Notes under the pieces: generated by a model
Seen by the model: the letters and a program-made list of their open reading frames with translations, nothing else
Database searches by the model: none
What the model was told of the DNA's origin: nothing
From: Eledone cirrhosa
Taxonomy: Eukaryota
NCBI GenBank assembly: GCA_964016885.1
Contig: OZ024740.1
Location: 204,352,001 to 204,416,000, forward strand
Length of the DNA: 64,000 nt
Direction: 5' to 3'
In this document: positions 12,442 through 53,440 of the stretch, one piece after another
Position numbering within the stretch: position 1 is the stretch's first letter
Layout: each line of letters opens with the position of its first letter
Program-made: the position numbers and the translations under genes

Positions 12442-12624
12442 GCGCGCGCGTGTGTATTGACGATTGTTCCCCTTGCTTCTGCTGGACACCACCAGAGGGC
12501 GATAGTCCCGGTGTTTGACATAGCTACGGCTTTCTAAATGTGTATCCATAAACATACCGTATATCTTTAGAAATACGAAATTTCAATACATATCTGTATC
12601 CAGCTATGCATGAAGCTAATACCT

Positions 12625-16105: not shown

Positions 16106-16921
16106 TTAATTGTAAGTTGTGATGTTGCTATTCCATTCATGCTTTCTATTTAATTTTGGTTGGAGTTCATTTATGTTTATTGCCTCTGTGATTTGTCTAA
16201 ACATTGCGTCTTTTCTGTGTGTAGATTCTATTTTTATTTCTATGTTCTTTAATTTGCCCTTATGTTCTATTTTAGCATGTTGGTAGAGTACAGATGATTC
16301 TTTACTATCTTGAAGCTCTCGCCAGTGTTCATTTATCCGTTCTCCTATACTATGAGCTGTCTCACCTATGTACACTATATTCTTATCTCTACATTGTCCT
16401 TCAGTACATCTTATGCTATATACTACATTTCTAGTTTTACAGTTAATATGGGGGCTTAGTTTACAGATTATACATTTCTTATCTATACAGGGAGGTCTTT
16501 GAAAAGGGTATGTATTGCTAATAAGTGTTTTTATAGAGGTACCTGGTCTTTCTACTATCTTAATATTGAGTTTATGTTTATGTAGGGCCCTTCTGAATTT
16601 GTAAGCTAATTCACCTCTAGGGGTTGTATTGATGAACATTACACTCTGGTATTTATTGCTATCATACCATGAGTGTATTCTATTAACCTTATTCCTAGTT
16701 CTTTCTATTCTATTCCAAAATTTGCTCCTATACAAGGGGCAGGTCCCATTTGTATCATTATTTACCATGTTTTCCCATTTGGTTCTGGCTCCTCTATATA
16801 CTCTGATATTATCTCTCTGGTTGTAACCAGAGAACTGCATACGGTGGATGAAGTGTTGTATGTGTCTCTCTAGTTCTTTGGGGTTGCACATGCGGGACAC
16901 GTTTCTCATCACCAGTACCAA
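16106..16921 (-). pseudogene. Penelope linker and GIY-YIG endonuclease fragment (inverted arm, 271 aa open)
   Basis: PCIDKKCIIC, NVVYSIRC..VYIGET..ERINEH and EAININELQPKLN. Confidence 0.8.
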
Positions 16922-24150: not shown

Positions 24151-24440
24151 GTAAGAACAATATCATTGGCTGAGCCGCCATCTTGAAGTATTTCTATTAC
24201 TATTTTGGTTTTTATTTTACTTCTATTAATGAATAAAATTTTATATAGTCAATAATTTCAGCACGTCTTGCTCATATTAGTTTTATTTTTGTTGTTGATA
24301 TGTGTGATGTGATTAAGGACTTTGCTGCAGATGCTGACGTGGTTGTATGGTTAAGCAGTTTCTTATAGATCCAGACGGGGCTGTGTTGTTAAGGAGTTTA
24401 TTATAGACCCAGACGTGGTTGTGTTGTTAAGAAGTTTATT

Positions 24441-27400
24441 ATAGACCCAGACGTGGCGGTGTTGTTAAGAAGTTCGTTATAGACATAGACGTGGCTGTGT
24501 TATTAAGGAGTTTCTTATAGACCCAGACGTGGCTGTGTTGTTAAGGAGTTTGTTATAGACCATGACGTGGCAGTGTTGTTAAGGAGTTTGTTATAGACCC
24601 AGATGTGGCTGTGTTGTTAAGGAGTTTATTATAGACACAGACGTGGCTGTGTTGTTAAGGAGTTCGTTATCGACCCAGGCGTGGCTGTGTTATTAAGGAG
24701 TTTCTTATAGACCCAGACGTGGCTGTGTTATTAAGGAGATTCTTATAGACCCAGACGTGGCTGTGTTATTAAGGAGTTTGTTATAGACCAAGACGTGGCT
24801 GTGTTGTTAAGGAGTTCGTTATAGACCCAGACATGGTTGTGTTATTAAGGAGTTTGTAGTAGACCCAGACATGGTGGTGTTGTTAAGGAGTTTATTATAG
24901 ACCCAGACTATGGCTGTGTTATTAAGGAGTTTATTATAGACCCAGACGTGTCTGTGTTGTTAAGGTGTTCATTATAGACCCAGACGTGGCTGTGTTATTA
25001 AGGAGTTCGTTATAGACACAGACGGGGCTGTGTTGTTAAGGAGTTCATTATAGACCCAGACGTGGCTGTGTTGTTAAGGACTTTGTTATAGACCCAGACG
25101 TGGCTGTGTTATAGACCCAGACGTGGCTGTGTTATAGACCCAGACGTGGCTGTGTTATAGACCCAGACGTGGCTATGTTATTAAGAAGTTTCTTATAGAC
25201 CCAGACGTGGCTGTGTTATTAAGGAGTTTGTTATAGACTCAAACGTGGCTGTGTTATTAAGGAGTTTGTTATAGCCCCAGATCGGCTGTGTTGTTAAGGA
25301 GTTCGTTATAGACACAGACGGGGCTGTGTTATTAAGGAGTTTATTATAGACCCCGACGTGGCTGTGTTATTAAGGGGTTTCTTATAGACCCAGACGTGGC
25401 TGTGTTATGAAGGAGTTTATTATAGACCCAGACGTCGCGGTGTTGTACAGGAGTTCGTTATAGACCCAGACGTGGCTTTGTTATTAAGGAGTTTATTATA
25501 GACCCAGACGTTGCTGTGTTGTTAAGGAGTTTGTTATAGACCCAGACGTGGCTGTGTTGTTAAGTAGTTCGTTATAGACCCAGACATAGTTGTGTTATTA
25601 AGGAGTTTGTAGTAGACCCAGACATGGTGGTGTTGTTAAGGAGTTTATTATAGACCCAGACTATGGCTGTGTTATTAAGGAGTTTATTATAGACCCAGAC
25701 GTGTCTGTGTTGTTAAGGTGTTCATTATAGACCAAGACGTGGCTGTGTTATTAAGGAGTTCGTTATAGACACAGATGGGGCTGTGTTGTTAAGGAGTTCA
25801 TTATAGACCCAGACGTGGCTGTGTTGTTAAGGAGTTTGTTATAGACCCACACGTGGCTGTGTTATAGACCCAGACGTGGCTGTGTTATAGACCGAGACGT
25901 GGCTATGTTATTAAGAAGTTTCTTATAGACCCAGACGTGGCTGTGTTGTTAAGGAGTTTGTTATAGACTCAGACGTGGCTGTGTTATTAAGGAGTTTGTT
26001 ATAGCCCCAGATCGGCTGTGTTGTTAAGGAGTTCGTTATAGACACAGACGGGGCTGTGTTATTAAGGAGTTTATTATAGACACAGACGTGGCTGTGTTAT
26101 TAAGGGTTTCTTATAGACCCAGACGTGGCTCTGTTGTTAAGGAGTTCGTTATAGACACAGACGGGGCTGTGTTGTTAAGGAGTTTCTTATAGACCCAGAC
26201 GTGGCTGTGTTCTTAAGGAGTTCGTTATAGACACAGACGGGGCTGTGAAGTTAAGGAGTTTGTTATAGACCCAGACGTGACTGTGTTATTAAGGAGTTTA
26301 TTATAGACCCAGACGTGGCTGTGTTGTTAAGGAGTTCGTTATAGACACAGACGGGGCTGTGTTATTAAGGAGTTTATTATAGACCCAGACGTGGCTGTGT
26401 TGTTAAGGAGTTCGTTATAGACCCAGGCGTGGCTGTGTTATTAAGGAGTTTATTATAGACCCAGACGTGGCTGTGTTATTAAGGAGTTTGTTATAGACCC
26501 AGACGTGGCTATGTTATTAAGGAGTTTCTTATAGACCCAGACGTGGCTGTGTTGGTAAGGAGTTTGTTATAGACACAGACGTGATTGTGTTGTTAAGGAG
26601 TTCGTTATCGACCCAGGCTTGGCTGTGTTATTAAGGAGTTTCTTATAGACCCAGACGTGGCTGTTTTATTAAGGAGATTCTTATAGACCCAGACGTGGCT
26701 GTGTTATTAAGGAGTTTGTTATAGACCCAGACGTGGCTGTGTTGTTAAGGAGTTCGTTATAGACGCAGACGGGGCTTTGTTGTTAAGGAGTTTCATATAG
26801 ACCCAGACGGGGCTGTGTTGTTAAGGAGTTCGTTATAGACTCAGACGGGGCTGTGTTGTTAAGGAGTTTCATATAGACCCAGACGGGGCTGTGTTGTTAA
26901 GGAGTTTCTTATAGACCGAGACGGGGCTGTGTTGTTAAGGAGTTTCTTATAGACCCAGACGTGGCTGTGTTGTTAAGGAGTTCGTTATAGACACAGACGT
27001 GGCTGTGTTGTTAAGGAGTTTCTTATAGACCCAGACGTGGGTGTGTTGTTAAGGAGTTCGTTATAGACACAGACGGGGCTGTGAAGTTAAGGAGTTTGTT
27101 ATAGACCCAGACGTGACTGTGTTATTAAGGAGTTTATTATAGACCCAGACGTGGCTGTGTTGTTAAGGAGTTTGTTAAATACTCAGACGTGGCTGTGTTA
27201 TTTAGGAGTTTGTTATAGCCCCAGATCGGCTGTGTTGTTAAGGAGTTCGTTATAGACACAGACGGTGCTGTGTTATTAAGGAGTTTATTATAGACCCAGA
27301 CGTGGCTGTGTTATTAAGGGGTTTCTTATAGACCCAGACGTGGCTGTGTTATTAAGGAGTTTATTATAGACCCAGACGTTGCTGTCTTATTAAGGAGTTT

Positions 27401-30400
27401 GTTATAGACCCAGACGTGGCTGTGTTGTTAAGGAGTTCGTTATAGACACAGACGGGGCTGTGTTGTTAAGGAGTTCATTATAGACCCAGACGTGGCTGTG
27501 TTATTAAGGAGTTTGTTATAGACCCAGACGTGGCTGTGTTATAGACCCAGACGTGGCTATGTTATTAAGATTTTTCTTATAGACCCAGACGTGGCTGTGT
27601 TGTTAAGGAGTTTGTTATAGACTCAGACGTGGCTGTGTTATTAAGGAGTTTGTTATAGCCCCAGATCGGCTGTGTTGTTAAGGAGTTCGTTATAGACACA
27701 GACGGGGCTGTGTTATTAAGGAGTTTATTATAGACCCAGACGTGGCTGTGTTATTAAGGGTTTCTCATAGACCCAGGCGTGGCTGTGTTATTAAGGAGTT
27801 TATTATAGACCCAGACGTGGCTGTGTTATTAAGGAGTTTGTTATAGACCCAGACGTGGCTATGTTATTAAGGAGTTTCTTATAGACCCAGACGTGGCTGT
27901 GTTGGTAAGGAGTTTGTTATAGACACAGACGTGATTGTGTTGTTAAGGAGTTCGTTATCGACCCAGGCTTGGCTGTGTTATTAAGGAGTTTCTTATAGAC
28001 CCAGACGTGGCTGTTTTATTAAGGAGATTCTTATAGACCCAGACGTGGCTGTGTTATTAAGGAGTTTGTTATAGACCCAGACGTGGCTGTGTTGTTAAGG
28101 AGTTCGTTATAGACGCAGACGGGGCTTTGTTGTTAAGGAGTTTCATATAGACCCAGACGGGGCTGTGTTGTTAAGGAGTTCGTTATAGACTCAGACGGGG
28201 CTGTGGTGTTAAGGAGTTTCATATAGACCCAGACGGGGCTGTGTTGTTAAGGAGTTTCTTATAGACCGAGACGGGGCTGTGTTGTTAAGGAGTTTCTTAT
28301 AGACCCAGACGTGGCTGTGTTGTTAAGGAGTTCGTTATAGACACAGACGTGGCTGTGTTGTTAAGGAGTTTATTATAGACCCAGACGTGGCGGTGTTGTT
28401 AAGGAGTTCGTTATAGACCCAGACGTTGCTGTGTTATTAAGGAGTTTGTTATAGACCCAGACGTGGCTGTGTTGTTAAGGAGTTCGTTATAGACACAGAC
28501 GGGGCTGTGTTGTTAAGGAGTTCATTATAGACCCAGACGTGGCTGTGTTATTAAGGAGTTTGTTATAGACCCAGACGTGGCTGTGTTATAGACCCAGACG
28601 TGGCTATGTTATTAAGAAGTTTCTTATAGACCCAGACGTGGCTGTGTTGTTAAGGCGTTTGTTATCGACTCAGACGTGGCTGTGTTATTAAGGAGTTTGT
28701 TATAGCCCCAGATCGGCTGTGTTGTTAAGGAGTTCGTTATAGACACAGACGGGGCTGTGTTATTAAGGAGTTTATTATAGACCCAGACGTGGCTGTGTTA
28801 TTAAGGGTTTCTCATAGACCCAGGCGTGGCTGTGTTATTAAGGAGTTTATTATAGACCCAGACGTGGCTGCGTTGTTAAGGAGTTCGTTATAGACCCAGA
28901 GGTGGCTGTGTTATTAAGGAGTTTATTATAGACCCAGACGTGGCTGTGTTATTAAGGAGTTTGTTATAGACCCAGACGTGGCTGCGTTGTTAAGGAGTTC
29001 GTTATAGACCCAGAGGTGGCTGTGTTATTAAGGAGTTTATTATAGACCCAGACGTGGCTGTGTTATTAAGGAGTTTGTTATAGACCCAGACGTGGCCGTG
29101 TTGTTAAGGCGTTTGTTATAGACACTGACGTGATTGTGTTGTTAAGGAGTTCGTTATCGACACAGGCTTGGCTGTGTTATTAAGGAGTTTCTTATAGACA
29201 CAGAGGTGGCAGTGTTATTAAGGAGATTCTTATAGACCCAGACGTGGCTGTGTTATTAAGGAGTTAGTTATAGACCCAGACGTGGCTGTGTTGTTAAGGA
29301 GTTCGTTATAGACGCAGACGGGGCTGTGTTGTTAAGGAGTATCTTATAGACCCAGACGTGGCTGTGTTGCTAAGGAGTTCATTATAGACTCAGACGTGGC
29401 TGTGTTATTAAGGAGTTTATTATAGACCCAGACGTGGCTGTGTTATTAACGGGTTTCTTATAGACCCAGACGTGGCTGTGTTATTAAGGAGTTTATTATA
29501 GACCCAGATGTGGCGGTGTTGTTAAGGGGTTCGTTATAGACCCAGACGTGGCTGTGTTATTAAGGAGTTTATTATAGACCCAGACGTGGATGTGTTATTA
29601 AGGAGTTTGTTATAGACCCAAACGTGGCTGTGTTATTAAGGAGTTTGTTATAGCCCCAGATCGGCTGTGTTGTTAAGGAGTTCGTTATAGACACAGACGG
29701 GGCTGTGATATTAAGGTGTTTATTATAGACCCAGACGTGGCTGTGTTATTAAGGGGTTTCTTATAGACCCAGACGTGGCTGTGTTATTAAGGAGTTTATT
29801 ATAGACCGAGACGTGGCGGTGTTGTTAAGGAGTTCGTTATAGACCCAGACGTGGCGGTGTTGTTAAGAAGTTCGTTATAGACATAGACGTGGCTGTGTTA
29901 TTAAGGAGTTTCTTATAGACCCAGACGTGGCTGTGTTGTTAAGGAGTTTGTTATAGACCATGACGTGGCAGTGTTGTTAAGGAGTTTGTTATAGACCCAG
30001 ATGTGGCTGTGTTGTTAAGGAGTTTATTATAGACACAGACGTGGCTGTGTTGTTAAGGAGTTCGTTATCGACCCAGGCGTGGCTGTGTTATTAAGGAGTT
30101 TCTTATAGACCCAGACGTGGCTGTGTTATTAAGGAGTTTGTTATAGACCAAGACGTGGCTGTGTTGTTAAGGAGTTCGTTATACACCCAGACATGGTTGT
30201 GTTATTAAGGAGTTTGTAGTAGACCCAGACATGGTGGTGTTGTTAAGGAGTTTATTATAGACCCAGACTATGGCTGTGTTATTAAGGAGTTTATTATAGA
30301 CCCAGACGTGTCTGTGTTGTTAAGGTGTTCATTATAGACCCAGACGTGGCTGTGTTATTAAGGAGTTCGTTATAGACACAGACGGGGCTGTGTTGTTAAG

Positions 30401-33400
30401 GAGTTCATTATAGACCCAGACGTGGGTGTGTTGTTAAGGAGTTTGTTATAGACCCAGACGTGGCTGTGTTATAGACCCAGACGTGGCTGTGTTATTAAGG
30501 AGTTTGTTATAGACTCAAACGTGGCTGTGTTATTAAGGAGTTTGTTATAGCCCCAGATCGGCTGTGTTGTTAAGGAGTTCGTTATAGACACAGACGGGGC
30601 TGTGTTATTAAGGAGTTTATTATAGACCCCGACGTGGCTGTGTTATTAAGGGGTTTCTTATAGACCCAGACGTGGCTGTGTTATGAAGGAGTTTATTATA
30701 GACCCAGACGTCGCGGTGTTGTACAGGAGTTCGTTATAGACCCAGACGTGGCTTTGTTATTAAGGAGTTTATTATAGACCCAGACGTTGCTGTGTTGTTA
30801 AGGAGTTTGTTATAGACCCAGACGTGGCTGTGTTGTTAAGTAGTTCGTTATAGACCCAGACATAGTTGTGTTATTAAGGAGTTTGTAGTAGACCCAGACA
30901 TGGTGGTGTTGTTAAGGAGTTTATTATAGACCCAGACTATGGCTGTGTTATTAAGGAGTTTATTATAGACCCAGACGTGTCTGTGTTGTTAAGGTGTTCA
31001 TTATAGACCAAGACGTGGCTGTGTTATTAAGGAGTTCGTTATAGACACAGATGGGGCTGTGTTGTTAAGCAGTTCATTATAGACCCAGACGTGGCTGTGT
31101 TGTTAAGGAGTTTGTTATAGACCCACACGTGGCTGTGTTATAGACCCAGACGTGGCTGTGTTATAGACCGAGACGTGGCTATGTTATTAAGAAGTTTCTT
31201 ATAGACCCAGACGTGGCTGTGTTGTTAAGGAGTTTGTTATAGACTCAGACGTGGCTGTGTTATTAAGGAGTTTGTTATAGCCCCAGATCGGCTGTGTTGT
31301 TAAGGAGTTCGTTATAGACACAGACGGGGCTGTGTTATTAAGGAGTTTATTATAGACACAGACGTGGCTGTGTTATTAAGGGTTTCTTATAGACCCAGAC
31401 GTGGCTCTGTTGTTAAGGAGTTCGTTATAGACACAGACGGGGCTGTGTTGTTAAGGAGTTTCTTATAGACCCAGACGTGGCTGTGTTCTTAAGGAGTTCG
31501 TTATAGACACAGACGGGGCTGTGAAGTTAAGGAGTTTGTTATAGACCCAGACGTGACTGTGTTATTAAGGAGTTTATTATAGACCCAGACGTGGCTGTGT
31601 TGTTAAGGAGTTCGTTATAGACACAGACGGGGCTGTGTTATTAAGGAGTTTATTATAGACCCAGACGTGGCTGTGTTGTTAAGGAGTTCGTTATAGACCC
31701 AGGCGTGGCTGTGTTATTAAGGAGTTTATTATAGACCCAGACGTGGCTGTGTTATTAAGGAGTTTGTTATAGACCCAGACGTGGCTATGTTATTAAGGAG
31801 TTTCTTATAGACCCAGACGTGGCTGTGTTGGTAAGGAGTTTGTTATAGACACAGACGTGATTGTGTTGTTAAGGAGTTCGTTATCGACCCAGGCTTGGCT
31901 GTGTTATTAAGGAGTTTCTTATAGACCCAGACGTGGCTGTTTTATTAAGGAGATTCTTATAGACCCAGACGTGGCTGTGTTATTAAGGAGTTTGTTATAG
32001 ACCCAGACGTGGCTGTGTTGTTAAGGAGTTCGTTATAGACGCAGACGGGGCTTTGTTGTTAAGGAGTTTCATATAGACCCAGACGGGGCTGTGTTGTTAA
32101 GGAGTTCGTTATAGACTCAGACGGGGCTGTGTTGTTAAGGAGTTTCATATAGACCCAGACGGGGCTGTGTTGTTAAGGAGTTTCTTAAAGACCGAGACGG
32201 GGCTGTGTTGTTAAGGAGTTTCTTATAGACCCAGACGTGGCTGTGTTGTTAAGGAGTTCGTTATAGACACAGACGTGGCTGTGTTGTTAAGGAGTTTCTT
32301 ATAGACCCAGACGTGGGTGTGTTGTTAAGGAGTTCGTTATAGACACAGACGGGGCTGTGAAGTTAAGGAGTTTGTTATAGACCCAGACGTGACTGTGTTA
32401 TTAAGGAGTTTATTATAGACCCAGACGTGGCTGTGTTGTTAAGGAGTTTGTTAAATACTCAGACGTGGCTGTGTTATTTAGGAGTTTGTTATAGCCCCAG
32501 ATCGGCTGTGTTGTTAAGGAGTTCGTTATAGACACAGACGGTGCTGTGTTATTAAGGAGTTTATTATAGACCCAGACGTGGCTGTGTTATTAAGGGGTTT
32601 CTTATAGACCCAGACGTGGCTGTGTTATTAAGGAGTTTATTATAGACCCAGACGTTGCTGTGTTATTAAGGAGTTTGTTATAGACCCAGACGTGGCTGTG
32701 TTGTTAAGGAGTTCGTTATAGACACAGACGGGGCTGTGTTGTTAAGGAGTTCATTATAGACCCAGACGTGGCTGTGTTATTAAGGAGTTTGTTATAGACC
32801 CAGACGTGGCTGTGTTATAGACCCAGACGTGGCTATGTTATTAAGAAGTTTCTTATAGACCCAGACGTGGCTGTGTTGTTAAGGAGTTTGTTATAGACTC
32901 CGACGTGGCTGTGTTATTAAGGAGTTTGTTATAGCCCCAGATCGGCTGTGTTGTTAAGGAGTTCGTTATAGACACAGACGGGGCTGTGTTATTAAGGAGT
33001 TTATTATAGACCCAGACGTGGCTGTGTTATTAAGGGTTTCTCATAGACCCAGGCGTGGCTGTGTTATTAAGGAGTTTATTATAGACCCAGACGTGGCTGT
33101 GTTATTAAGGAGTTTGTTATAGACCCAGACGTGGCTATGTTATTAAGAAGTTTCTTATAGACCCAGACGTGGCTGTGTTGGTAAGGAGTTTGTTATAGAC
33201 ACAGACGTGATTGTGTTGTTAAGGAGTTCGTTATCGACCCAGGCTTGGCTGTTTTATTAAGGAGATTCTTATAGACCCAGACGTGGCTGTGTTATTAAGG
33301 AGTTTGTTATAGACCCAGACGTGGCTGTGTTGTTAAGGAGTTCGTTATAGACGCAGACGGGGCTTTGTTGTTAAGGAGTTTCATATAGACCCAGACGGGG

Positions 33401-35077
33401 CTGTGTTGTTAAGGAGTTCGTTATAGACTCAGACGGGGCTGTGTTGTTAAGGAGTTTCATATAGACCCAGACGGGGCTGTGTTGTTAAGGAGTTTCTTAT
33501 AGACCGAGACGGGGCTGTGTTGTTAAGGAGTTTCTTATAGACCCAGACGTGGCTGTGTTGTTAAGGAGTTCGTTATAGACACAGACGTGGCTGTGTTGTT
33601 AAGGAGTTTATTATAGACCCAGACGTGGCGGTGTTGTTAAGGAGTTCGTTATAGACCCAGACGTTGCTGTGTTATTAAGGAGTTTGTTATAGACCCAGAC
33701 GTGGCTGTGTTGTTAAGGAGTTCGTTATAGACACAGACGGGGCTGTGTTGTTAAGGAGTTCATTATAGACCCAGACGTGGCTGTGTTATTAAGGAGTTTG
33801 TTATAGACCCAGACGTGGCTGTGTTATAGACCCAGACGTGGCTATGTTATTAAGAAGTTTCTTATAGACCCAGACGTGGCTGTGTTGTTAAGGCGTTTGT
33901 TATAGACTCAGACGTGGCTGTGTTATTAAGGAGTTTGTTATAGCCCCAGATCGGCTGTGTTGTTAAGGAGTTCGTTATAGACACAGACGGGGCTGTGTTA
34001 TTAAGGAGTTTATTATAGACCCAGACGTGGCTGTGTTATTAAGGGTTTCTCATAGACCCAGGCGTGGCTGTGTTATTAAGGAGTTTATTATAGACCCAGA
34101 CGTGGCTGCGTTGTTAAGGAGTTCGTTATAGACCCAGAGGTGGCTGTGTTATTAAGGAGTTTATTATAGACCCAGACGTGGCTGTGTTATTAAGGAGTTT
34201 GTTATAGACCCAGACGTGGCTGCGTTGTTAAGGAGTTCGTTATAGACCCAGAGGTGGCTGTGTTATTAAGGAGTTTATTATAGACCCAGACGTGGCTGTG
34301 TTATTAAGGAGTTTGTTATAGACCCAGACGTGGCCGTGTTGTTAAGGCGTTTGTTATAGACACTGACGTGATTGTGTTGTTAAGGAGTTCGTTATCGACC
34401 CAGGCTTGGCTGTGTTATTAAGGAGTTTCTTATAGACCCAGAGGTGGCAGTGTTATTAAGGAGATTCTTATAGACCCAGACGTGGCTGTGTTATTAAGGA
34501 GTTAGTTATAGACCCAGACGTGGCTGTGTTGTTAAGGAGTTCGTTATAGACGCAGACGGGGCTGTGTTGTTAAGGAGTATCTTATAGACCCAGACGTGGC
34601 TGTGTTGCTAAGGAGTTCATTATAGACTCAGACGTGGCTGTGTTATTAAGGAGTTTATTATAGACCTAGACGTGGCTGTGTTATTAACGGGTTTCTTATA
34701 GACCCAGACGTGGCTGTGTTATTAAGGAGTTTATTATAGACCCAGATGTGGCGGTGTTGTTAAGGGGTTCGTTATAGACCCAGACGTGGCTGTGTTATTA
34801 AGGAGTTTATTATAGACCCAGACGTGGATGTGTTATTAAGGAGTTTGTTATAGACCCAAACGTGGCTGTGTTATTAAGGAGTTTGTTATAGCCCCAGATC
34901 GGCTGTGTTGTTAAGGAGTTCGTTATAGACACAGACGGGGCTGTGATATTAAGGTGTTTATTATAGACCCAGACGTGGCTGTGTTATTAAGGGGTTTCTT
35001 ATAGACCCAGACGTGGCTGTGTTATTAAGGAGTTTATTATAGACCCAGACGTGGCGGTGTTGTTAAGGAGTTCGTTA
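24441..35077. repeat. ~5.3-5.4-kb tandem duplication within the satellite
   Basis: Rare markers recur: AGACATAGAC at 24481 and 29879, also GTACAGG, GTTAAATACTC and GGAGTATC. The offset drifts from 5398 to about 5238 through monomer losses. Confidence 0.88.
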
Positions 35078-35183
35078 TAGACCCAGACGTGGCTGTGTTA
35101 TTAAGGACTTTATTATAGACCCAGACGTAGCTGTGTTGTTAAGGAGTTCGTTATAGACCCAGACGTGGTGTGTTATTAAGAAG

Positions 35184-36564
35184 TGTAGCGGTTGTCTCCC
35201 TTGTTTTGATTGGGATCTAGACGGGAAGTAGAACCCTTTCTGCAACTTCCGGTCAGAGCCCTATAAAACTAACAACTTTAAGCTTTCTAACTCTCTTTGC
35301 CTTTTCGGCACCAGGTCAAGAGCCTCTCATTGGGCTCCGCCATTAATTTGGCCAACAGGCGCCTGGACTTAGCCAGGCGTCTTCTGCCAGCCGCGTTTGC
35401 CTGGCAATCAAAACGGTAACTACTAACTTTGCTTCATTCTAACAACAACCTCATCTTTGACATGTCAAGTATACTATCTACCATTGTTAATTAAATATTA
35501 TACACACAAACCATGTCTCGTTTTGTTACATTCATACAACCTCAGTAATCTCGCTATATCGGTGACCCCGACGTGATACGAACACGCGGCCGTTCATCAC
35601 GTCGGGGTCACCACTTTAGGAAATAGATATCGGTGCACATGCAACATAATATAAAAGACAAAGAGTACTGGTGTGTGTGTGTGATAAAGTTTTACTTCAT
35701 AGAAGTCAAAGGTGTATAATGTAAAGGGTTGTTACCCGATGGCAATAATACCATTCTGAAGTTGGTAGAAATGTCTTGGCGCTCTCATCTCAGGCTGGTG
35801 AGCTGCATGGTGCTTGGTAACGAAAGGGTCGTCCAGCAAGAATCACCAGCTATGGTCGGAGATGTTACCACTTCAGGAATCAGGAGGCGAGAGAGAGATT
35901 TCGCGGTTAATCGCTCCTTTTATCTCTGTTGACCGGAAGTGACCACTAGGGAGTTTGGTCAATCCCAAAGGGAAGCAACTCCACCTACTTCCTGTCTAGA
36001 GAACAGCGATTCGATTGTCGTGGATGTCCAGTCGTTCTCTGGCCAAGAGCGGTTGGCTACCTTGATATCTATCATTGATTTTTCCAAACATTCTTTTGTC
36101 TTAATTTTCATGCCTGTTACAACATTCTCGCCAACTTGCTACATATTTTCATTTCGATTTTTATACACTAAAATTCTGGCGGGAGGTTATGTAGCGGTTG
36201 TCTCCCTTGTTTTGATTGGGATCTAGACGGGAAGTAGAACCCTTTCTGCAACTTCCGGTCAGAGCCCTATAAAACTAACAACTTTAAGTTTTCTAACTCT
36301 CTTTGCCTTTTCGGCACCAGGTCAAGAGCCTCTCATTGGGCTCCGCCATTAATTTGGCCAACAGGCGCCTGGACTTAGCCAGGAGTCTTCTGCCAGCCGC
36401 GTTTGCCTGGCAATCAAAACGGTAACTACTAACTTTGCTTCATTCTAACAACATCCTCATCTTTGACATGTCAAGTATACTATCTACCATTGTTAATTAA
36501 ATATTATACACACAAACCATGTCTCGTTTTGTTACATTCATACAACCTCAGTAATCTCGCTATA
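35184..36564 (+). mobile_element. Non-autonomous LTR retroelement (TRIM-like, probably Gypsy-dependent), 1381 bp
   Basis: 375-bp LTRs at 35184-35558 and 36190-36564 (TGTAGCG...CGCTATA; 3 differences seen). TSD GAAG at 35180-35183 and 36565-36568. tRNA-Trp PBS at 35560-35577 and PPT-like GGCGGGAGG before the 3' LTR. Empty site at 60931-60980. Confidence 0.93.
35560..35613. other. Head-to-head pair of tRNA-Trp primer binding sites (18-bp inverted repeat)
   Basis: Plus strand cGGTGACCCCGACGTGAT (35560-35577). ATCACGTCGGGGTCACCA (35596-35613) is the 3' 18 nt of tRNA-Trp including CCA, i.e. a perfect PBS on the minus strand. Confidence 0.9.
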
Positions 36565-39500
36565 GAAGTTTATTATACACCCAGACGTGACTGTGTTGTT
36601 AAGGAGTTCGTTATAGACCCAGACGGGGCTGTGTTATTAAGGAGTTTATTATCGAACCAGACGCGGCTGTGTTGTTAAGGAGTTCGTTATAGATCAGACG
36701 GGGCTGTGTTATTAAGGAGTTTATTATAGACCCAGACGTGGCTGTGTTGTTAAGGTGTTCATTATAGACCCAGACGTGGCTGTGTTATTAAGGAGTTTGT
36801 TATAGACCCAGACGTGGGTGTGTTATAGACCCAGACGTGGCTGTGTTATAGACCCAGACGTGGCTATGTTATTAAGAAGTTTCTTATAGACCCAGACGTG
36901 GCTGTGTTGTTAAGGAGTTTGTTATAGACTCAGACTTGGCTGTGTTATTAAGGAGTTTGTTATAGCCCCAGATCGGCTGTGTTGTTAAGGAGTTCGTTAT
37001 AGACACAGACGGGGCCGTGTTATTAAGGAGTTTATTATAGAGCCAGACGTGGCTGTGTTATTAAGGGGTTTCTTATAGACCCAGACGTGGCTGTGTTATT
37101 AAGGAGTTTATTATAGACCCAGACGTGGCGGTGTTGTAAAGGAGATCGTTATAGGCCCAGACGTGGCTGTGTTATTGAGGAGTTTATTATAGACCCAGAC
37201 GTTGCTGTGTTATTAAAGAGTTTGTTATAGACCCAGACGTGGCTGTGTTGTTAAGGAGTTTGTTATAGACCATGACGTGGCTGTGTTGTTAAGGAGTTCG
37301 TTATAGACCCAGACATGGTTGTGTTATTAAGGAGTTTGTAGTAGACCCAGACATGGTGGTGTTGTTAAGGAGTTTATTATAGACCCAGACTATGGCTGTG
37401 TTATTAAGGAGTTTATTATAGACCCAGACGTGTCTGTGTTGTTAAGGTGTTCATTATAGACCCAGACGTGGCTGTGTTATTAAGGAGTTCGTTATAGACA
37501 CAGACGGGGCTGTGTTGTTAAGGAGTTCATTATAGACCCAGACGTGGCTGTGTTGTTAAGGAGTTTGTTATAGACCCAGACGTGGCTGTGTTATAGACCC
37601 AGACGTGGCTATGTTATTAAGAAGTTTCTTATAGACCCAGACGTGGCTGTGTTGTTAAGGAGTTTGTTATAGACTCAGATGTGGCTGTGTTATTAAGGAG
37701 TTTGTTATAGCCCCAGATCGGATGCGTTGTTAAGGAGTTCGTTATAGACACAGACGTGGCTGTGTTATTAAGGAGTTTATTATAGACCCAGACGTGGCTG
37801 TGTTATTAAGGGTTTCTTATAGACCCAGACGTGGCTCTGTTGTTAAGGAGTTCGTTATAGACACAGACGGGGCTGCGTTGTTAAGGAGTTTCTTATAGAC
37901 CCAGACGTGGCTGTGTTGTTAAGGAGTTTGTTATAGACCCAGACGTGACTGTGTTATTAAGGAGTTTATTATAGACCCAGTCGTGGCTGTGTTGTTAAAG
38001 AGTTCGTTAAAGACACAGACGGGGCAGTGTTATTAAGGAGTTTATTATAGACCCACACGTGGCTGTGTTGTTAAGGAGTTCGTTATAGACACAGATGGGG
38101 CTGTGTTATTAAGGAGTTTATTATAGACCCAGACGTGGCTGTGTTATTAAGGGTTTCTTATAGATCCAGGCGTGGCTGTGTTATTAAGGAGTTTATTATA
38201 GACCCAGACGTGGCTGTGTTATTAAGGAGTTTGTTATAGACCCAGAGGTGGATATGTTATTAAGGAGTTTCTTATTGACCCAGACGTGGCTGTGTTGGTA
38301 AGGAGTTTGTTATAGACACAGACGTGATTGTGTTGTTAAGGAGTTCGTTATCGACCCAGGCTTGGCTGTGTTATTAAGGAGTTTCTTATAGACCCAGACG
38401 TGGCTATGTTATTAAGGAGATTCTTATAGACCCAGACGTGGCTGTGTTGTTAAGGAGTTTGTTATAGTCCCAGACGTGGCTGTGTTGTTAAGGAGTTCGT
38501 TATAGACGCAGACGGGGCTGTGATGTTAAGGAGTTTCCTATAGACCCAGACGTGGCTGTGTTGTTAAGGAGTTCGTTATAGACACAGACGGGGCTGTGTT
38601 GTTAAGGATTTTCTTATAGACCCAGACGGGGCTGTGTTGGTAAGGAGTTTGTTATAGACACAGACGTGATTGTGTTGTTAAGGAGTTCGTTATAGACCCA
38701 GACGTGGCCGTGTTATTCAGGGGTTTCTTATAGACCCAGACGTGGCTGTGTTATTAAGGAGTTTATTATAGACCCAGACGTGGCGGTGTTGTAAAGGAGT
38801 TCGTTATAGACTCAGACGTGGCTGTGTTATTAAGGAGTTTATTATAGACCCAGACGTTGCTGTGTTATTAAGGAGTTTGTTATAGACCCAGACGTGGCTG
38901 TGTTGTTAAGGAGTTTGTTATAGACCATGACGTGGCTGTGTTGTTAAGGAGTTCGTTATAGACACAGACGGGGCTGTGTTATTAAGGAGTTTCCTATAGA
39001 CCCAGACGTGGCTGTGTTGTTAAGGAGTTCGTTATAGACTCAGACGGGGCTGTGTTGTTAAGGAGTTTCTTATAGACCCAGACGGGGCTGTGTTGTTAAG
39101 GAGTTCGTTATAGACACAGACGTGGCTGTGTTGTTAAGGAGTTTCTTATAGACCCAGACGTGGGTGTGTTGTTAAGGAGTTCGTTATAGACACAGACGGA
39201 GCTGTGAAGTTAAGGAGTTTGTTATAGACCCAGACGTGGCTATGTTATTAAGAAGTTTCTTATAGACCCAGACGTGGCTGTGTTGTTAAGGAGTTTGTTA
39301 TAGACTCAGACGTGGCTGTGTTATTTAGGAGTTTGTTATAGCCCAAGATCGGCTGTGTTGTTAAGGAGTTCGTTATAGAGACAGACGGTGCTGTGTTATT
39401 AAGGAATTTATTATAGACCCAGACGTGGCTGTGTTATTAAGGGGTTTCTTATAGACCCAGACGTGGCTGTGTTATTAAGGAGTTTATTATAGACCCAGAC

Positions 39501-42500
39501 GTCGCGGTGTTGTAAAGGAGTTCGTTATAGACCCAGACGTGGCTGTGTTATTAAGGAGTTTATTATAGACCCAGACGTTGCTGTGTTATTAAGGAGTTCG
39601 TTATAGACACAGACGGGGCTGTGTTGTTAAGGAGCTCATTATAGACCCAGACGTGGCTGTGTTGTTAAGGAGTTTGTTATAGACCCAGACGTGGCTGTGT
39701 TATAGACCCAGACGTGGCTATGTTATTAAGAAGATTCTTATAGACCCAGACGTGGCTTTGTTGTTAAGGAGTTTGTTATAGACTCAGACGTGGCTGTGTT
39801 ATTAAGGAGTTTGTTATAGCCCCAGATCGGCTGTGTTGTTAAGGAGTTCGTTATCGACACAGACGGTGCTGTGTTATTAAGGAGTTTATTATAGACCCAG
39901 ACGTGGCTGTGTTATTAAGGGGTTTCTTATAGACCCAGACGTGGCTGTGTTATTAAGGAGTTTATTATAGACCCAGACGTGGCGGTGTTGTAAAGGAGTT
40001 CGTTATAGACCCAGACGTGGCTGTGTTATTAAGGAGTTTATTATAGACCCAGACGTGGCTGTGTTATTAAGGAGTTTGTTATAGACCCAGACGTGGCTGT
40101 GTTGTTAAGGAGTTTGTTATAGACCATGACGTGGCTGTGTTGTTAAGGAGTTCGTTATAGACACAGAAGGGGCTGTGTTGTTAAGGAGTTCATTATAGAC
40201 CCAGACGTGGCTGTGTTGTTAAGGAGTTTGTTATAGACCCAGACGTGGCTGTGTTATAGACCCAGACGTGGCTATGTTATTAAGAAGTTTCTTATAGACC
40301 CAGACGTGGCTGTGTTGTTAAGGAGTTTGTTATAGACTCAGACGTGGCTGTGTTATTAAGGAGTTTGTTATAGCCCCAGATCGGCTGTGTTGTTAAGGAG
40401 TTCGTTATAGACACAGACGGGGCTGTGTTATTAAGGAGTTTATTATAGACCCAGACGTGGCTGTGTTATTAATGGTTTCTCATAGACCCAGGCGTGGCTG
40501 TGTTATTAAGGAGTTTATTATAGACCCAGACGTGGCTGCGTTGTTAAGGAGTTCGTTATAGACCCAGAGGTGGCTGTGTTATTAAGGAGTTTATTATAGA
40601 CCCAGACATGGCTGTGTTGTTAAGGAGTTTGTTATAGACCCAGACGTGGTTGTGTTGTTAAGGAGTTTGTTATAGACCCAGACGTGGCCGTGTTGTTAAG
40701 GCGTTTGTTATAGACACTGACGTGATTGTGTTGTTAAGGAGTTCGTTATCGACCCAGGCTTGGCTGTGTTATTAAGGAGTTTCTTATAGACCCAGAGGTG
40801 GCTGTGTTATTAAGGAGATTCTTATAGACCCAGACGTGGCTGTGTTATTAAGGAGTTAGTTATAGACCCAGACGTGGCTGTGTTGTTAAGGAGTTCGTTA
40901 TAGACGCAGACGTGGCTGTGTTGCTAAGGAGTTCATTATAGACTCAGACGTGGCTGTGTTATTAAGGAGTTTATTATAGACCCAGACGTGGCTGTGTTAT
41001 TAACGGGTTTCTTATAGACCCAGACGTGGCTGTGTTATTAAGGAGTTTATGATACACCCAGACGTGACTGTGTTGTTAAGGAGTTCGTTATAGACACAGA
41101 CGTGGCTGTGTTATTAAGGAGTTTGTTATAGACCCAGACGTGGCTGTGTTGTTAAGGAGTTCGTTATAGACGCAGACGGGGCTGTGTTGTTAAGGAGTTT
41201 ATTATAGACCCAGACGTGGCTGTGTTATTAAGGGGTTTCTTATAGACCCAGACGTGGCTGTGTTATTAAGGAGTTTATTATAGACCCAGACGTTTCGGTG
41301 TTGTTAAGGAGTTCGTTATAGACCCAGACGTGGCTGTGTTATTAAGGACTGTATTATAGACCCCAGACGTAGCTGTGTTGTTAAGGAGTTCGTTATAGAC
41401 CCAGACGTGGCTGTGTTATTAAGGAGTTTATTATAGACCCAGACGTGGCTGTGTTATTATGGAGTTTGTTATAGACCCAGACGTGGCTGTGTTGTTAAGG
41501 AGTTCGTTATAGACGCAGACGGGGCTGTGTTATTAAGGAGTTTCTTATAGACCCAGACGTGGCTGTGTTATTAAGGAGTTTGTTATAGCCCCAGATCGGC
41601 TGTGTTGTTAAGGAGTTCGTTATAGACACAGACGGGGCTGTGATATTAAGGTGTTTATTATAGACCCAGACGTGGCTGTGTTATTAAGGGGTTTCTTATA
41701 GACCCAGACGTGGCTGTGTTATTAAGGAGTTTATTATAGACCCAGACGTGGCGGTGTTGTTAAGGAGTTCGTTATAGACCCAGACGTGGCTGTGTTATTA
41801 AGGACTTTATTATAGACCCAGACGTAGCTGTGTTGTTAAGTAGTTCGATATAGACCCAGACGTGGCTGTGTTATTAAGAAGTTTATTTTACACCCAGACG
41901 TAACTGTGTTGTTAAGGAGTTCGTTATAGACCCAGACGTGGCTATGTTATTAAGGAGTTCGTTATAGACCCAGACGCGGCTGCGTTATTAAGGAGTTTAT
42001 TATCGAACCAGACGTGGCTGTGTTGTTAAGGAGTTCGTTATAGACACAGACGGGGCTGTGTTATTAAGGAGTTTATTATAGACCCAGACGTGGCTGTGTT
42101 GTTAAGGAGTTCGTTATAGACACAGATGGGGCTGTATTATTAAGGAGTTTATTATACACCCAGACGTGACTGTGTTGTTAAGGAGTTTATTATAGACCCA
42201 GACTATGGCTGTGTTATTAAGGAGTTTATTATAGACCCAGATGTGTCTGTGTTGTTAAGGTGTTCATTATAGACCCAAAACTGGCTGTGTTATTAAGGAG
42301 TTCGTTATAGACACAGATGGGGCTGTCTTGTTAAGGGGTTTATTATAGACCCAGACGTGGCTGTGTTATTAACGGGTTTCTTATAAACCCAGACGTGGCT
42401 GTGTTATTAAGGAGTTTATTATAGACCCAGACGTGGCGGTGTTATTAAGGAGTTCGTTATAGACCCAGACGTGGCTATGTTATTAAGGAGTTTATTATAG

Positions 42501-43276
42501 ACCCAGACGTGGCTGTGTTATTAAGGAGTTTGTTATAGACCCAGACGTGGCTGTGTTGTTAAGGAGTTCGTTATAGACGCAGACGGGGCTGTGTTATTAA
42601 GGAGTTTCTTATAGACCCAGACGTAGCTGTGTTATTAAGGAGTTTGTTATAGCCCCAGATCGGCTGTGTTGTTAAGGAGTTCGTTATAGACACAGACGGG
42701 GCTGTGATATTAAGGTGTTTATTATAGACCCAGACGTGGCTGTGTTATTAAGGGGTTTCTTATAGACCCAGACGTGGCTGTGTTATTAAGGAGTTTATTA
42801 TAGACCCAGACGTGGCGGTGTTGTTAAGGAGTTCGTTATAGACCCAGACGTGGCTGTGTTATTAAGGACTTTATTATAGACCCAGACGTAGCTGTGTTGT
42901 TAAGGAGTTCGTTATAGACCCAGACGTGGCTGTGTTATTAAGAAGTTTATTATACACCCAGACGTAACTGTGTTGTTAAGGAGTTCGTTATAGACCCAGA
43001 CGTGGCTATGTTATTAAGGAGTTCGTTATAGACCCAGACGCGGCTGCGTTATTAAGGAGTTTATTATCGAACCAGACGTGGCTGTGTTGTTAAGGAGTTC
43101 GTTATAGACACAGACGGGGCTGTGTTATTAAGGAGTTTATTATAGACCCAGACGTGGCTGTGTTGTTAAGGAGTTCGTTTTAGACACAGACGGGGCTGTG
43201 TTATTAAGGAGTTTATTATAGACCCAGACGTGGCTGTGTTGTTAAGGAGTTCGTTATAGACACAGATGGGGCTGTA

Positions 43277-43378
43277 CCCGCCGAGGTTAACTTTGCCTTT
43301 CATCCTTACGGGGTCGATAAAATGAAGTACCAGTAATACACTGGGTAATTGCTGGCCTTGTGCCTAACGTAGAAACAA
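43277..43378 (+). mobile_element. 5'-truncated SINE inserted in a satellite monomer
   Basis: CCCGCCGAGGTTAACTTTGCC...GTAGAAACAA lies between GGCTGTA and TTATTAAGG. An uninterrupted equivalent monomer is at 42121-42150. Confidence 0.9.
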
Positions 43379-46300
43379 TTATTAAGGAGTTTATTATACA
43401 CCCAAACGTGACTGTGTTGTTAAGTAGTTTATTATAGACCCAGACTATGGCTGTGTTATAAACGAGTTTATTATAGACCCAGATGTCTCTGTGTTGTTAA
43501 GATGTTCATTATAGACCCAAAACTGGCTGTGTTATTAAGGAGTTCGTTATAGACACAGATGGGGCTGTGTTGTTAAGGAGTTCATTATAGACCCAGACGT
43601 GGCTGTGTTGTTAAGGAGTTTCTTATAGACCCAGACGTGGCTGTGTTATTAAGGAGTTTGTTATAGCCCCAGATCGGCTGTGTTGTTAAGGAGTTCGTTA
43701 TAGACACAGACGGGGCTGTGTTATTAAGGAGTTTATTATAGACCCAGACGTGGCTGTGTTATTAAGGGGTTTCTGATAGACCCAGACGTGGCTGTGTTAT
43801 TAAGGAGTTTATTATAGACCCAGACGTTGCTGTGTTATTAAGGAGTTTATTATAGACCCAGACGTGGCGGTGTTGTTAAGGAGTTCGTTATAGACGCAGA
43901 CGGGGCTGTGTTGTTAAGGAGTTTATTATAGACCCAGACGTGGCTGTGTTATTAAGGACTTTATTATAGACCCAGACGTAGCTGTGTTGTTAAGGAGTTC
44001 GTTATAGACCCAGACGTGTCTGTGTTATTAAGGACTTTATTATAGACCCAGACGTAGCTGTGTTGTTAAGGAGTTCGTTATAGACCCAGTCGTGGCTGTG
44101 TTATTAAGAAGTTTATTATACACCCAGACGTAACTGTGTTGTTAAGGAGTTCGTTATAGACCCAGACGTGGCTATGTTATTAAGGAGTTCGTTATAGACC
44201 CAGACGCGGCTGCGTTATTAAGGAGTTTATTATCGAACCAGACGTGGCTGTGTTGTTAAGGAGTTCGTTATAGACACAGACGGGGCTGTGTTATTAAGGA
44301 GTTTATTATAGACCCAGACGTGGCTGTGTTGTTAAGGAGTTCGTTATAGACACAGATGGGGCTGTATTATTAAGGAGATTATTATACACCCAGACGTGAC
44401 TGTGTTGTTAAGGAGTTTATTATAGACCCAGACTATGGCTGTGTTATTAAGGAGTTTATTATAGACCCAGATGTGTCTGTGTTGTTAAGGTGTTCATTAT
44501 AGACCCAAAACTGGCTGTGTTATTAAGGAGTTCGTTATAGACACAGATGGGGCTGTGTTGTTAAGGAGTTTATTATAGACCCAGACGTGGCTGTGTTATT
44601 AACGGGTTTCTTATAGACCCAGACGTGGCTGTGTTATTAAGGAGTTTATTATAGACCCAGACGTGGCGGTGTTGTTAAGGAGTTCGTTATAGACCCAGAC
44701 GTGGCTGTGTTATTAAGGAGTTTATTATAGACCCAGACGTGGCTGTGTTATTAAGGAGTTTGTTATAGACCCAGACGTGGCTGTGTTGTTAAGGAGTTCG
44801 TTATAGACGCAGACGGGGCTGTGTTATTAAGGAGTTTCTTATAGACCCAGACGTAGCTGTGTTATTAAGGAGTTTGTTATAGCCTCAGATCGGCTGTGTT
44901 GTTAAGGAGTTCGTTATAGACACAGACGGGGCTGTGATATTAAGGTGTTTATTATAGACCCAGACGTGGCTGTTATTAAGGGGTTTCTTATAGACCCAGA
45001 CGTGGCTGTGTTATTAAGGAGTTTATTATAGACCCAGACGTGGCGGTGTTGTTAAGGAGTTCGTTATAGACCCAGACGTGGCTGTGTTATTAAGGACTTT
45101 ATTATAGACCCAGACGTAACTGTGTTGTTAAGGAGTTCGTTAAAGACCCAGACGTGGCTATGTTATTAAGGAGTTCGTTATAGACCCAGACGCGGCTGCG
45201 TTATTAAGGAGTTTATTATCGAACCAGACGTGGCTGTGTTGTTAAGGAGTTCGTTATAGACACAGACGGGGCTGTGTTATTAAGGAGTCTATTATAGACC
45301 CAGACGTGGCTGTGTTGTTAAGGAGTTCGTTATAGACACAGACGGGGCTGTGTTATTAAGGAGTTTATTATAGACCCAGACGTGGCTGTGTTGTTAAGGA
45401 GTTCGTTATAGACACAGATGGGGCTGTATTATTAAGGAGTTTATTATACACCCAGACGTGACTGTGTTGCTAAGGAGTTCGTTATAGACACAGACGTGGC
45501 TGTGTTATTAAGGAGTTTGTTATAGACCCAGACGTGGCTGTGTTGTTAAGGATTCGTTATAGACGCAAACGGGGCTGTGTTGTTAAGGAGTTTATTATAG
45601 ACCCAGACGTGGCTGTGTTATTAAGGAGTTCGTTATAGACACAGACGGGGCTGTGTTATTAAGGAGTCTATTATAGACCCAGACGTGGCTGTGTTGTTAA
45701 GGAGTTCGTTATAGACACAGACGGGGCTGTGTTATTAAGGAGTTTATTATAGACCCAGACGTGGCTGTGTTATTAACGGGTTTCTTATAGACCCAGACGT
45801 GGCTGTGTTATTAAGGAGTTTATGATACACCCAGACGTGACTGTGTTGTTAAAGAGTTCGTTATAGACACAGACGTGGCTGTGTTATTAAGGAGTTTGTT
45901 ATAGACCCAGACGTGGCTGTGTTGTTAAGGAGTTCGTTATAGACGCAGACGGGGCTGTGTTGTTAAGGAGTTTATTATAGACCCAGACGTGGCTGTGTTA
46001 TTAAGGAGTTCGTTATAGACCCAGACGTGGCTGTGTTGTTAATGAGTTCGTTATAGACACAGACGGAGCTGTGATATCAAGGTGTTTATTATAGACCCAG
46101 ACGTGGCTGTGTTATTAAGGGGTTTCTTATAGAGCCAGACGTGGCTGTGTTATTAAGGAGTTTATTATAGACCCAAACGTTTCGGTGTTGTTAAGGAGTT
46201 CGTTATAGACCCAGACGTGGCTGTGTTATTAAGGACTGTATTATAGACCCCAGACGTAGCTGTGTTGTTAAGGAGTTCGTTATAGACCCAGACGTGGCTG

Positions 46301-52300: not shown

Positions 52301-53338
52301 AGATGTGTCTGTGTTGTTAAGGTGTTCATTATAGACCCAAAACTGGCTGTGTTATTAAGGAGTTCGTTATAGACACAGATGGGGCTGTCTTGTTAAGGGG
52401 TTTATTATAGACCCAGACGTGGCTGTGTTATTAACGGGTTTCTTATAAACCCAGACGTGGCTGTGTTATTAAGGAGTTTATTATAGACCCAGACGTGGCG
52501 GTGTTGTTAAGGAGTTCGTTATAGACCCAGACGTGGCTATGTTATTAAGGAGTTTATTATAGACCCAGACGTGGCTGTGTTATTAAGGAGTTTGTTATAG
52601 ACCCAGACGTGGCTGTGTTGTTAAGGAGTTCGTTATAGACGCAGACGGGGCTGTGTTATTAAGGAGTTTCTTATAGACCCAGACGTAGCTGTGTTATTAA
52701 GGAGTTTGTTATAGCCCCAGATCGGCTGTGTTGTTAAGGAGTTCGTTATAGACACAGACGGGGCTGTGATATTAAGGTGTTTATTATAGACCCAGACGTG
52801 GCTGTGTTATTAAGGGGTTTCTTATAGACCCAGACGTGGCTGTGTTATTAAGGAGTTTATTATAGACCCAGACGTGGCGGTGTTGTTAAGGAGTTCGTTA
52901 TAGACCCAGACGTGGCTGTGTTATTAAGGACTTTATTATAGACCCAGACGTAGCTGTGTTGTTAAGGAGTTCGTTATAGACCCAGACGTGGCTGTGTTAT
53001 TAAGAAGTTTATTATACACCCAGACGTAACTGTGTTGTTAAGGAGTTCGTTATAGACCCAGACGTGGCTATGTTATTAAGGAGTTCGTTATAGACCCAGA
53101 CGCGGCTGCGTTATTAAGGAGTTTATTATCGAACCAGACGTGGCTGTGTTGTTAAGGAGTTCGTTATAGACACAGACGGGGCTGTGTTATTAAGGAGTTT
53201 ATTATAGACCCAGACGTGGCTGTGTTGTTAAGGAGTTCGTTTTAGACACAGACGGGGCTGTGTTATTAAGGAGTTTATTATAGACCCAGACGTGGCTGTG
53301 TTGTTAAGGAGTTCGTTATAGACACAGATGGGGCTGTA

Positions 53339-53440
53339 CCCGCCGAGGTTAACTTTGCCTTTCATCCTTACGGGGTCGATAAAATGAAGTACCAGTAATA
53401 CACTGGGTAATTGCTGGCCTTGTGCCTAACGTAGAAACAA
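53339..53440 (+). mobile_element. Duplicate of the SINE insertion at 43277
   Basis: Same sequence and junctions, offset by 10,062 bp. Confidence 0.9.

Follow-up and report, generated by a model that had tools for sequence, protein, structure and literature searches.

The window analysed here, a stretch of 64,000 nucleotides of animal DNA, contains a short LTR element inserted in satellite DNA, and within that element two PBSs face each other. How such an interior arose, and whether it moves as part of one unit, are the questions raised by this locus. As far as about 24.3 kb the window consists of microsatellites and the debris of LINEs; a 38-bp satellite follows, in which the element occupies 1,381 bp (35184-36564). 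The outer features are the following:

24336..64000, no strand: 38-bp satellite array hosting the insertion
35180..35183, plus strand: left target-site duplication, 4 bp (or 5 bp, with the LTR end set one base earlier)
35184..35558, plus strand: 5' LTR-A, 375 bp, with TATA at 35262 and ATTAAA at 35490; 3 mismatches to the 3' copy
36144..36189, plus strand: 46-nt 3' internal piece, with a PPT-like G run (9-mer) at 36178-36186
36190..36564, plus strand: 3' LTR-A, 375 bp, with TATA at 36268
36565..36568, plus strand: right target-site duplication

The insertion represents a single and recent integration by a non-autonomous LTR element, because the outer LTRs (LTR-A, in direct orientation) are identical at 372/375 positions, a target duplication flanks them, the satellite phase is unbroken (unit spacing of 38, 37 and 38 across the insertion site when the element is omitted) and coding sequence is absent (the longest stop-to-stop frame in the element has 97 aa and no Pfam match). 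The first three of these observations agree with the original prediction that the element was mobilised as a unit. Its layout reads LTR-A, PBS-A and a tRNA overshoot, then inverted PBS-B and LTR-B, then the PPT and the second LTR-A. Both copies of LTR-A in the window start with TG and end with TA rather than CA. Rfam gave four chance-level matches on the element and none at the gathering score in the whole window. Since it found no hammerhead, we rejected a retrozyme identity. ARAGORN found no tRNA genes in the window.

The surroundings of the element are repetitive at several scales. Satellite positions 39764-45552 recur at 49826-55614 as a 5,789-bp duplicate, 10,062 bp apart and with only 4 mismatches, which reflects either tandem amplification in the very recent past or a duplication made in assembly. 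Both blocks contain an identical 103-bp non-satellite insert (43276-43378 and 53338-53440) that has no obvious target duplication; it is a dispersed repeat with 10 more matches (71-94%) in the first 24 kb of the window, and we take it to resemble a SINE fragment. An open frame of 1,209 codons (7533-11162, plus strand) with endonuclease, reverse transcriptase and C-terminal C2H2 fingers appears to be an intact LINE ORF, presumably of an RTE-like clade. Two related frames in opposite orientations at 16106-18006, one of which was scanned against Pfam and gave no match, presumably resemble Penelope-type fragments. The frame at 12095-12460 (plus strand) has, by eye, an SRCR-like cysteine pattern and is possibly a host exon; Pfam returned no match.

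The interior had been predicted to hold a second LTR, inverted and of a related family, followed by a PBS. Its features are located as follows:

35615..36143, minus strand: inverted LTR-B, about 529 bp; inner end at 35615-35617, outer end probably at 36143
36023..36143, minus strand: outer block of LTR-B, an exchangeable module whose orientation rests on its terminal motif
36000-35985, minus strand: 16-mer common to LTR-A and LTR-B (15/16 against the outer LTR)
35940-35930, minus strand: LTR-B 11-mer
35924-35918, minus strand: LTR-B TATA-like site
35696-35691, minus strand: LTR-B AGTAAA
35683-35672, minus strand: LTR-B (CA)6

All the minus-strand motifs originally noted are present and in LTR order (16-mer, 11-mer, TATA-like site, CT run, AGTAAA, (CA)6 and PBS), so that the LTR signals run in sequence and end in a PBS as for the LTR of a separate family. 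The 16-mer has three matches in the window, on the plus strand in both outer LTRs and on the minus strand in the interior (shuffle mean 0.00; 0/100 shuffles reach three). When LTR-A is aligned with the minus strand of the interior, the similarity reaches z 4.9 locally and 4.2 globally (0/300 dinucleotide shuffles each), compared with z 0.6 and 0.3 on the plus strand under the same scoring (84/300 and 105/300 shuffles). Under two stricter scorings the minus-strand signal is weaker (1/300 and 14/300, against 10/300 and 148/300 for the plus strand), and after deletion of both common motifs it stands at z 3.8 (0/500 shuffles). Under the two gap-tolerant scorings the interior thus aligns with LTR-A on the minus strand and not on the plus strand.

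We also weighed the reading that the interior is a forward 3' leader or UTR mosaic that shares enhancer motifs with LTR-A and is no LTR at all. It accounts for the low overall similarity between LTR-A and LTR-B, where blastn finds only a 16-nt match, and for the middle of LTR-A, which has no significant similarity to interior segments in any of 10 tests. However, the similarity that exists is strand-specific and collinear and resides in both U3 (z 3.3) and U5 (z 2.7), the signals stand in LTR order up to a perfect PBS, and a contig from another sequencing run (X4, below) joins the U3 core of LTR-B to the TATA/R region of LTR-A in the same sense (among the pieces listed). We regard this reading as largely refuted and highly improbable.

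The outer boundary of LTR-B, placed approximately at 36090 in the original prediction, more likely lies at 36143, because the interior has just one minus-strand TGTAG[C/G], which begins at this position with the same start as the outer LTR, and this motif pairs at 6/8 positions with the inner end of LTR-B in the same register as the LTR-A termini. The block 36023-36143 has no significant similarity to LTR-A on either strand, so 36143 is given as a probable boundary. Taken as the forward U5 of a third LTR, the same block reaches z 1.8 (33/500) against the U5 of A and z 1.2 (61/500) against that of B, neither of them significant, and a local alignment search for a duplicated U3 module in LTR-B returned only the common 16-mer. 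The predicted promoter geometry is one in which the 5' LTR-A and LTR-B converge, while LTR-B would read outward to the left and the 3' LTR-A outward to the right.

Between the 5' LTR-A and LTR-B lie three short segments related to tRNA-Trp:

35560..35577, plus strand: PBS-A, complement of the 3' 18 nt of tRNA-Trp, 17/18 (one mismatch)
35578..35595, plus strand: tRNA overshoot, antisense to the T arm and variable loop of tRNA-Trp, positions about 58-42
35596..35613, minus strand: PBS-B, perfect 18/18, inverted

The 18-nt PBS is thus found twice in the window, head to head and 18 nt apart (expected 0.03), and the perfect tRNA-Trp PBS originally reported is located at 35613-35596 on the minus strand with 0 mismatches. 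The spacer between the two was absent from the original prediction, and judged by its sequence it is tRNA-derived. It matches tRNA-Trp positions 42-57 at 15/16 positions plus one insertion, and 0/20000 random 18-mers score as well. Its differences from tRNA-Trp are a mismatch at A58, one other mismatch, at position 48, and one 1-nt insertion. For comparison, we scanned metagenomes with a motif taken from the window, made up of 15 bases of the PBS, two unspecified positions and 8 bases of the spacer, and obtained 120 loci, in which the 8 spacer bases match by construction; independent support for a tRNA-derived spacer therefore comes from the tRNA-Trp identity of these loci (108/124 ARAGORN calls are tRNA-Trp(CCA)) and from the similarity that continues to position 42. 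At position 58 the window has T, while 118/120 loci have A, 2/120 have G and none has T.

Normal plus-strand synthesis is described as stopping at tRNA position 58, which carries m1A58, and when this stop is missing reverse transcriptase goes on to copy more of the tRNA, and the added bases prevent the usual plus-strand transfer (PMC8599865). Read-through of m1A is reported to cause misincorporation and mismatches (PMC4787781). A mismatch at 58 is the mark expected of m1A58 read-through; with 3 differences in 18 nt, chance would place one there about 1 time in 6.

Overshoot copies recur elsewhere, since 7/120 metagenome loci bear CCA and lose tRNA similarity only 11-32 nt past the PBS (L023, L033, L039, L047, L061, L105 and L119). 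One of them, L047, has G at position 58, and L033 has a second PBS that is direct and partial. An inverted second PBS was found in 0/7 of these loci within the 150 nt examined. LTR-B ends in AAAG ahead of PBS-B, and an AAAG-type end is also present in 2/7 of the CCA-bearing loci, which are putative LTR loci, so this non-CA end is not peculiar to the window copy. In the viral_contigs set, nine stretches have the 18-nt PBS, none of them with the tRNA overshoot, and no stretch has two inverted PBSs within 30 nt.

Of 15 sequencing runs listed, 12 contain part of the element and none has half of its words; no RNA data set is listed among the 15, which is uninformative about expression. We compared positions 35345-36340 in X1 and X4 (organism A, one study) and in X5 and X6 (two other organisms and studies), leaving aside X7-X12, whose shares are small; the contigs are short, and the listing covers 32 pieces out of 916 and 24 loose ends out of 109. 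The median summed depth, which is not equivalent to copy number, is 37,900 in X1 and 1,550 in X4 for LTR-A, 15,600 and 530 for 36025-36194, and 1,130 and 51 for 35617-35956. Among the pieces listed, the junction of the LTR-B start, the 46-nt piece, the PPT and LTR-A is bridged in X4 (36085-36219), X5 (36023-36211) and X6 (36116-36223). As contigs of three organisms from three studies bridge it, the right-hand junction (36143/PPT/LTR-A) is family-wide.

LTR-B is found in other company as well. A 189-nt X4 record (record 10) aligns from exactly 35596 through the U5 of LTR-B and has 69 other letters past the PBS, and appears to be LTR-B with its PBS beside another neighbour, as in a native 5' LTR. 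Together with the minus-strand alignment, the motif order and the perfect PBS, this record bears out the predicted identity of the interior as an inverted related LTR with a PBS. In a loose end from X5, read by eye, a PPT-like run and the beginning of an LTR lie 23 nt ahead of a sequence related to the U3 core of LTR-B (8 differences in 60 nt); among the matches listed, relatives of this core occur in LTR-like contexts in both X4 and X5, and the contigs are too short to span two LTRs as paired LTR-B ends. From this loose end and the X4 joint between the U3 core of LTR-B and the TATA/R region of LTR-A, LTR-B belongs to the same LTR clade as LTR-A, as a distant relative, and runs in the opposite direction. 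Position 36022 marks the edge of a module: in X4, X5 and X6 the sequence to each side of it is also joined to other partners (among the matches listed).

The left-hand side is more variable. The PBS/PBS junction is bridged by 0/32 listed contig pieces (916 in all), of which the nearest ends at 35595. By depth arithmetic, the abundant X4 LTR-A contig spans the whole overshoot in 5/5 fitting solutions, and each of the five has one contig that extends at least to 35598; this arithmetic is weak because it assumes that no other contig contributes. The abundant X4 form with LTR-A and overshoot does not continue into the U5-B of the window (depth 13.6 versus about 520); the interior that is common in the family is therefore not the one in the window copy. 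Among the contig matches listed, the abundant X4 LTR-A form extends 2 nt further at its U5 end than the window copy and reads CA; the window copy integrated with a non-CA end. Among the matches listed for 35539-35569, abundant LTR-A copies in X1 as well as X4 have this +2 nt U5 end, and many LTR-A copies in both runs have a PBS that differs at two bases (35564 and 35569), perhaps corresponding to a different tRNA-Trp isodecoder. In one X5 contig among the pieces listed, a PBS with 10 nt of overshoot follows another LTR end, so the overshoot may predate the capture of LTR-B and have arisen independently of it.

These runs also bear on the possibility of an assembly or amplification chimera, which might be suspected from the nearby 5,789-bp duplication and from the hairpin between the PBSs, bridged by no contig among those listed. 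Yet the inverted arms measure only 18 bp and lead into different sequence, the two outer LTRs differ at 3 positions and are flanked by a target duplication, and both halves of the element and its right junction are present in other runs. We give such a chimera next to no probability.

The original prediction explained the element as a chimera of the strong-stop products of two families, which is plausible and is favoured by the tRNA overshoot and by a junction exactly at the 18th PBS base. In the form that we prefer, held with about even confidence, an overshot plus strand of A jumped end-to-end onto plus-strand strong-stop DNA from a relative. The element would thus be a non-autonomous, tRNA-Trp-primed Gypsy-type (CsRn1-like) LTR element that originated in a failed plus-strand transfer, and we infer the following order of events. 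Reverse transcription on an A element would have passed m1A58 of the tRNA primer, copied about 17 more bases and misread position 58. The overshot end, mismatched to the minus strand, would then have jumped to the 3' terminus of plus-strand strong-stop DNA from a relative packaged alongside, a DNA that ended exactly at the 18th PBS base, and LTR-B would have been copied backwards. With a second jump, synthesis would have resumed on the A template at a point 46 nt ahead of the PPT, and as this return lay just ahead of the PPT all coding sequence would have been lost. The resulting pair of PBSs would form a hairpin, yet the overshoot in its loop would add about 17 tRNA pairs on RNA of A sense only, so that the product may have stayed primable, and a helper element (a Trp-primed Gypsy) would have copied it in trans. 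The founding event would be old and the inner LTR since reshuffled among family members, the window copy being a recent insertion. End-to-end capture is consistent with PBS-B being a perfect 18-mer, with the junction lying exactly at its end, and with the complete U3-R-U5 layout of LTR-B, which fits plus-strand and not minus-strand strong-stop DNA. Also in its favour are the match of the spacer to tRNA-Trp with T at position 58, the alignment of X4 record 10 from exactly 35596, the bridged right-hand junction and the modelled preference for PBS-A with its overshoot (below). Against it, two jumps without homology are required, no listed piece crosses the PBS/PBS junction, the common X4 interior is a different one, the X5 overshoot stands behind another LTR end, and modelled loading is borderline in absolute terms.

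That cost is lower if a B element in opposite orientation inserted 46 nt upstream of the 3' LTR of A and everything between the extended PBS of A and the PBS of B was then lost in one event, either because the plus strand jumped too early on the nested template or through hairpin-guided repair. A single aberrant jump suffices here, fewer than in the capture model, and the plain abutment of LTR-B on the 3' internal piece of A is accounted for, as is the sequence upstream of LTR-B, which is A-rich (73% purine) and has no G-rich PPT. Nesting is also described as the commonest composite pattern (PMC1950507), and deletions that start at a PBS are described as known errors of reverse transcriptase (PMC3185545). 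However, nesting gives no reason for the breakpoint to fall precisely on base 18 of PBS-B, where strong-stop DNA naturally ends; the bases outside the LTR-B start resemble the spacer outside LTR-A, as in an unprocessed cDNA end (a weak point, two bases by eye); and no intermediate is present among the contigs listed. We consider nesting followed by deletion possible but doubtful.

Part of the fold of the PBS pair suggests a third route. The overshoot forms the loop of a PBS/anti-PBS hairpin (-41.9 kcal/mol, z -4.9, 0/200 shuffles), which is predicted to extend by four pairs (GAAC/GTTC) into the loop. Long ago an overshot plus strand may have snapped back on this 4-bp stem of its own and copied its own PBS and LTR backwards; LTR-B would then be a diverged self-copy, and the outer LTRs would have been replaced by recombination. 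The four extra pairs agree with this, as do the homology of A and B and the existence of intermediate LTR forms (an X4 joint from 35964 to 36260, on opposite strands). Self-copying is at odds, however, with LTRs that are barely alignable while PBS-B is 18/18, with A and B each differing by only a few percent among three organisms, and with LTR-B and its PBS beside another neighbour in X4 record 10. A clean event would also retain two bases that are missing here. We judge a snap-back origin to be very unlikely.

How the element can still be primed is a question raised by the hairpin, which should hide PBS-A. Cofolding with a 91-nt target predicts that 6/6 tRNA-Trp variants open PBS-A (-8.3 to -14.4) and 0/6 open PBS-B; with a shuffled spacer the mean gain is -0.3, and 31/200 shuffles retain the tRNA on PBS-A. 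With a 401-nt target, 0/6 variants open either PBS. In an opening-energy model (4 windows x 2 tRNA variants), PBS-A with the overshoot costs -4.1 to +0.8 kcal/mol, PBS-A alone +11.9 to +13.2 kcal/mol and PBS-B +8.8 to +13.4 kcal/mol. The modelled tRNAs come from other organisms and have neither CCA nor modifications, and the models cover RNA alone, with no help from nucleocapsid. The models thus favour tRNA loading on PBS-A, with its overshoot, over PBS-B by 9-17 kcal/mol, and this predicted asymmetry is stable; absolute loading on PBS-A is borderline, as the 91-nt and 401-nt targets disagree.

Taken further, the layout could be no debris but a working design in a successful family, in which the overshoot and the inverted PBS act as a primer-gated switch and the inverted LTR persists in several species as a putative antisense promoter whose parts pass between members. 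The hairpin would then shield the two PBSs, either against priming that comes too early or against 3' tRNA fragments, and would open only to full tRNA-Trp, on sense RNA; at the extreme, the inverted PBS could act as a mimic of the tRNA 3' end on PBS-A and prime after cleavage. We think a working design unlikely.

The element suggests a route to new non-autonomous LTR families besides simple internal deletion, in which an error of plus-strand transfer that is normally called fatal was apparently rescued by backward capture of a relative's LTR, and at least the right-hand junction has spread across species. It is a probable genomic record of m1A58 in a primer tRNA. It also offers a short natural RNA for direct tests of primer access, with two identical PBSs of which one has a putative toehold. 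Standard LTR annotation would overlook the inner LTR or label it a nested solo LTR.

Several known systems share parts of this architecture. Like the window element, the animal TRIMs PbTRIM (PMC3532108) and biv-TRIM (PMC6934838) are described as noncoding, with two LTRs, a PBS, a PPT and a short target duplication, and both must be mobilised in trans (PMC3532108, PMC6934838). The window element exceeds the strict TRIM limits of <1000 bp and 100-250-bp repeats (PMC6934838), with 1,381 bp and 375-bp LTRs, and differs from TRIMs in carrying, as its interior, a related LTR in inverted orientation and another PBS. The inner hairpins of biv-TRIM are described with 9-10-bp arms and no canonical PBS (PMC6934838), whereas both arms here are full PBSs. 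Helenus/TRIMp3 (Kojima 2024, PMC10886601) is described as a Gypsy-helped animal TRIM with a 4-bp target duplication and tRNA-derived sequence in the element. In Helenus the tRNA-like sequence lies within each LTR as a promoter, (PMC10886601), while in the window element it lies internally, in antisense, and runs on from the PBS. We rejected an identity with Helenus/TRIMp3, as the LTRs have no tRNA- or 5S-like sequence (ARAGORN 0 genes; no significant Rfam match).

An internal third LTR is likewise described in the template-switch complexes of Sabot and Schulman (PMC1950507), with matching outer LTRs and one target duplication, and a template switch in reverse transcription is the cause given (PMC1950507). 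Chimeric and tandem TRIMs of sugar beet (PMC13570524) also have an internal third LTR attributed to a template switch. The complexes of PMC1950507 are described as two complete cores joined by way of LTR homology, and the cases considered include no inverted internal LTR, while the window element has no core and an inverted inner LTR. Compared with third-LTR complexes generally, its inner LTR is inverted, belongs to another family and is joined PBS to PBS through tRNA sequence. A search of full-text literature, with subscription papers, Repbase reports and supplements mostly outside its scope, found no such inverted-LTR, PBS-to-PBS layout.

The likeliest helper can be sought in the CsRn1 lineage of Ty3/Gypsy, described with a tRNA-Trp PBS, matched here, and a 4-bp target duplication, compared with 4 or 5 bp here (PMC3630058). 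CsRn1 elements have a CHCC gag and GPY integrase motifs; the window element has no coding sequence and is likened to them by its PBS and possibly by its target duplication. CsRn1 is likely the helper lineage. Finally, the plus-strand strong-stop failure at m1A58 described for retroviruses (PMC8599865) likewise copies the tRNA past 18 nt. In retroviruses this overshoot is described as a dead end (PMC8599865), whereas here it is fixed in an integrated, repeated family.
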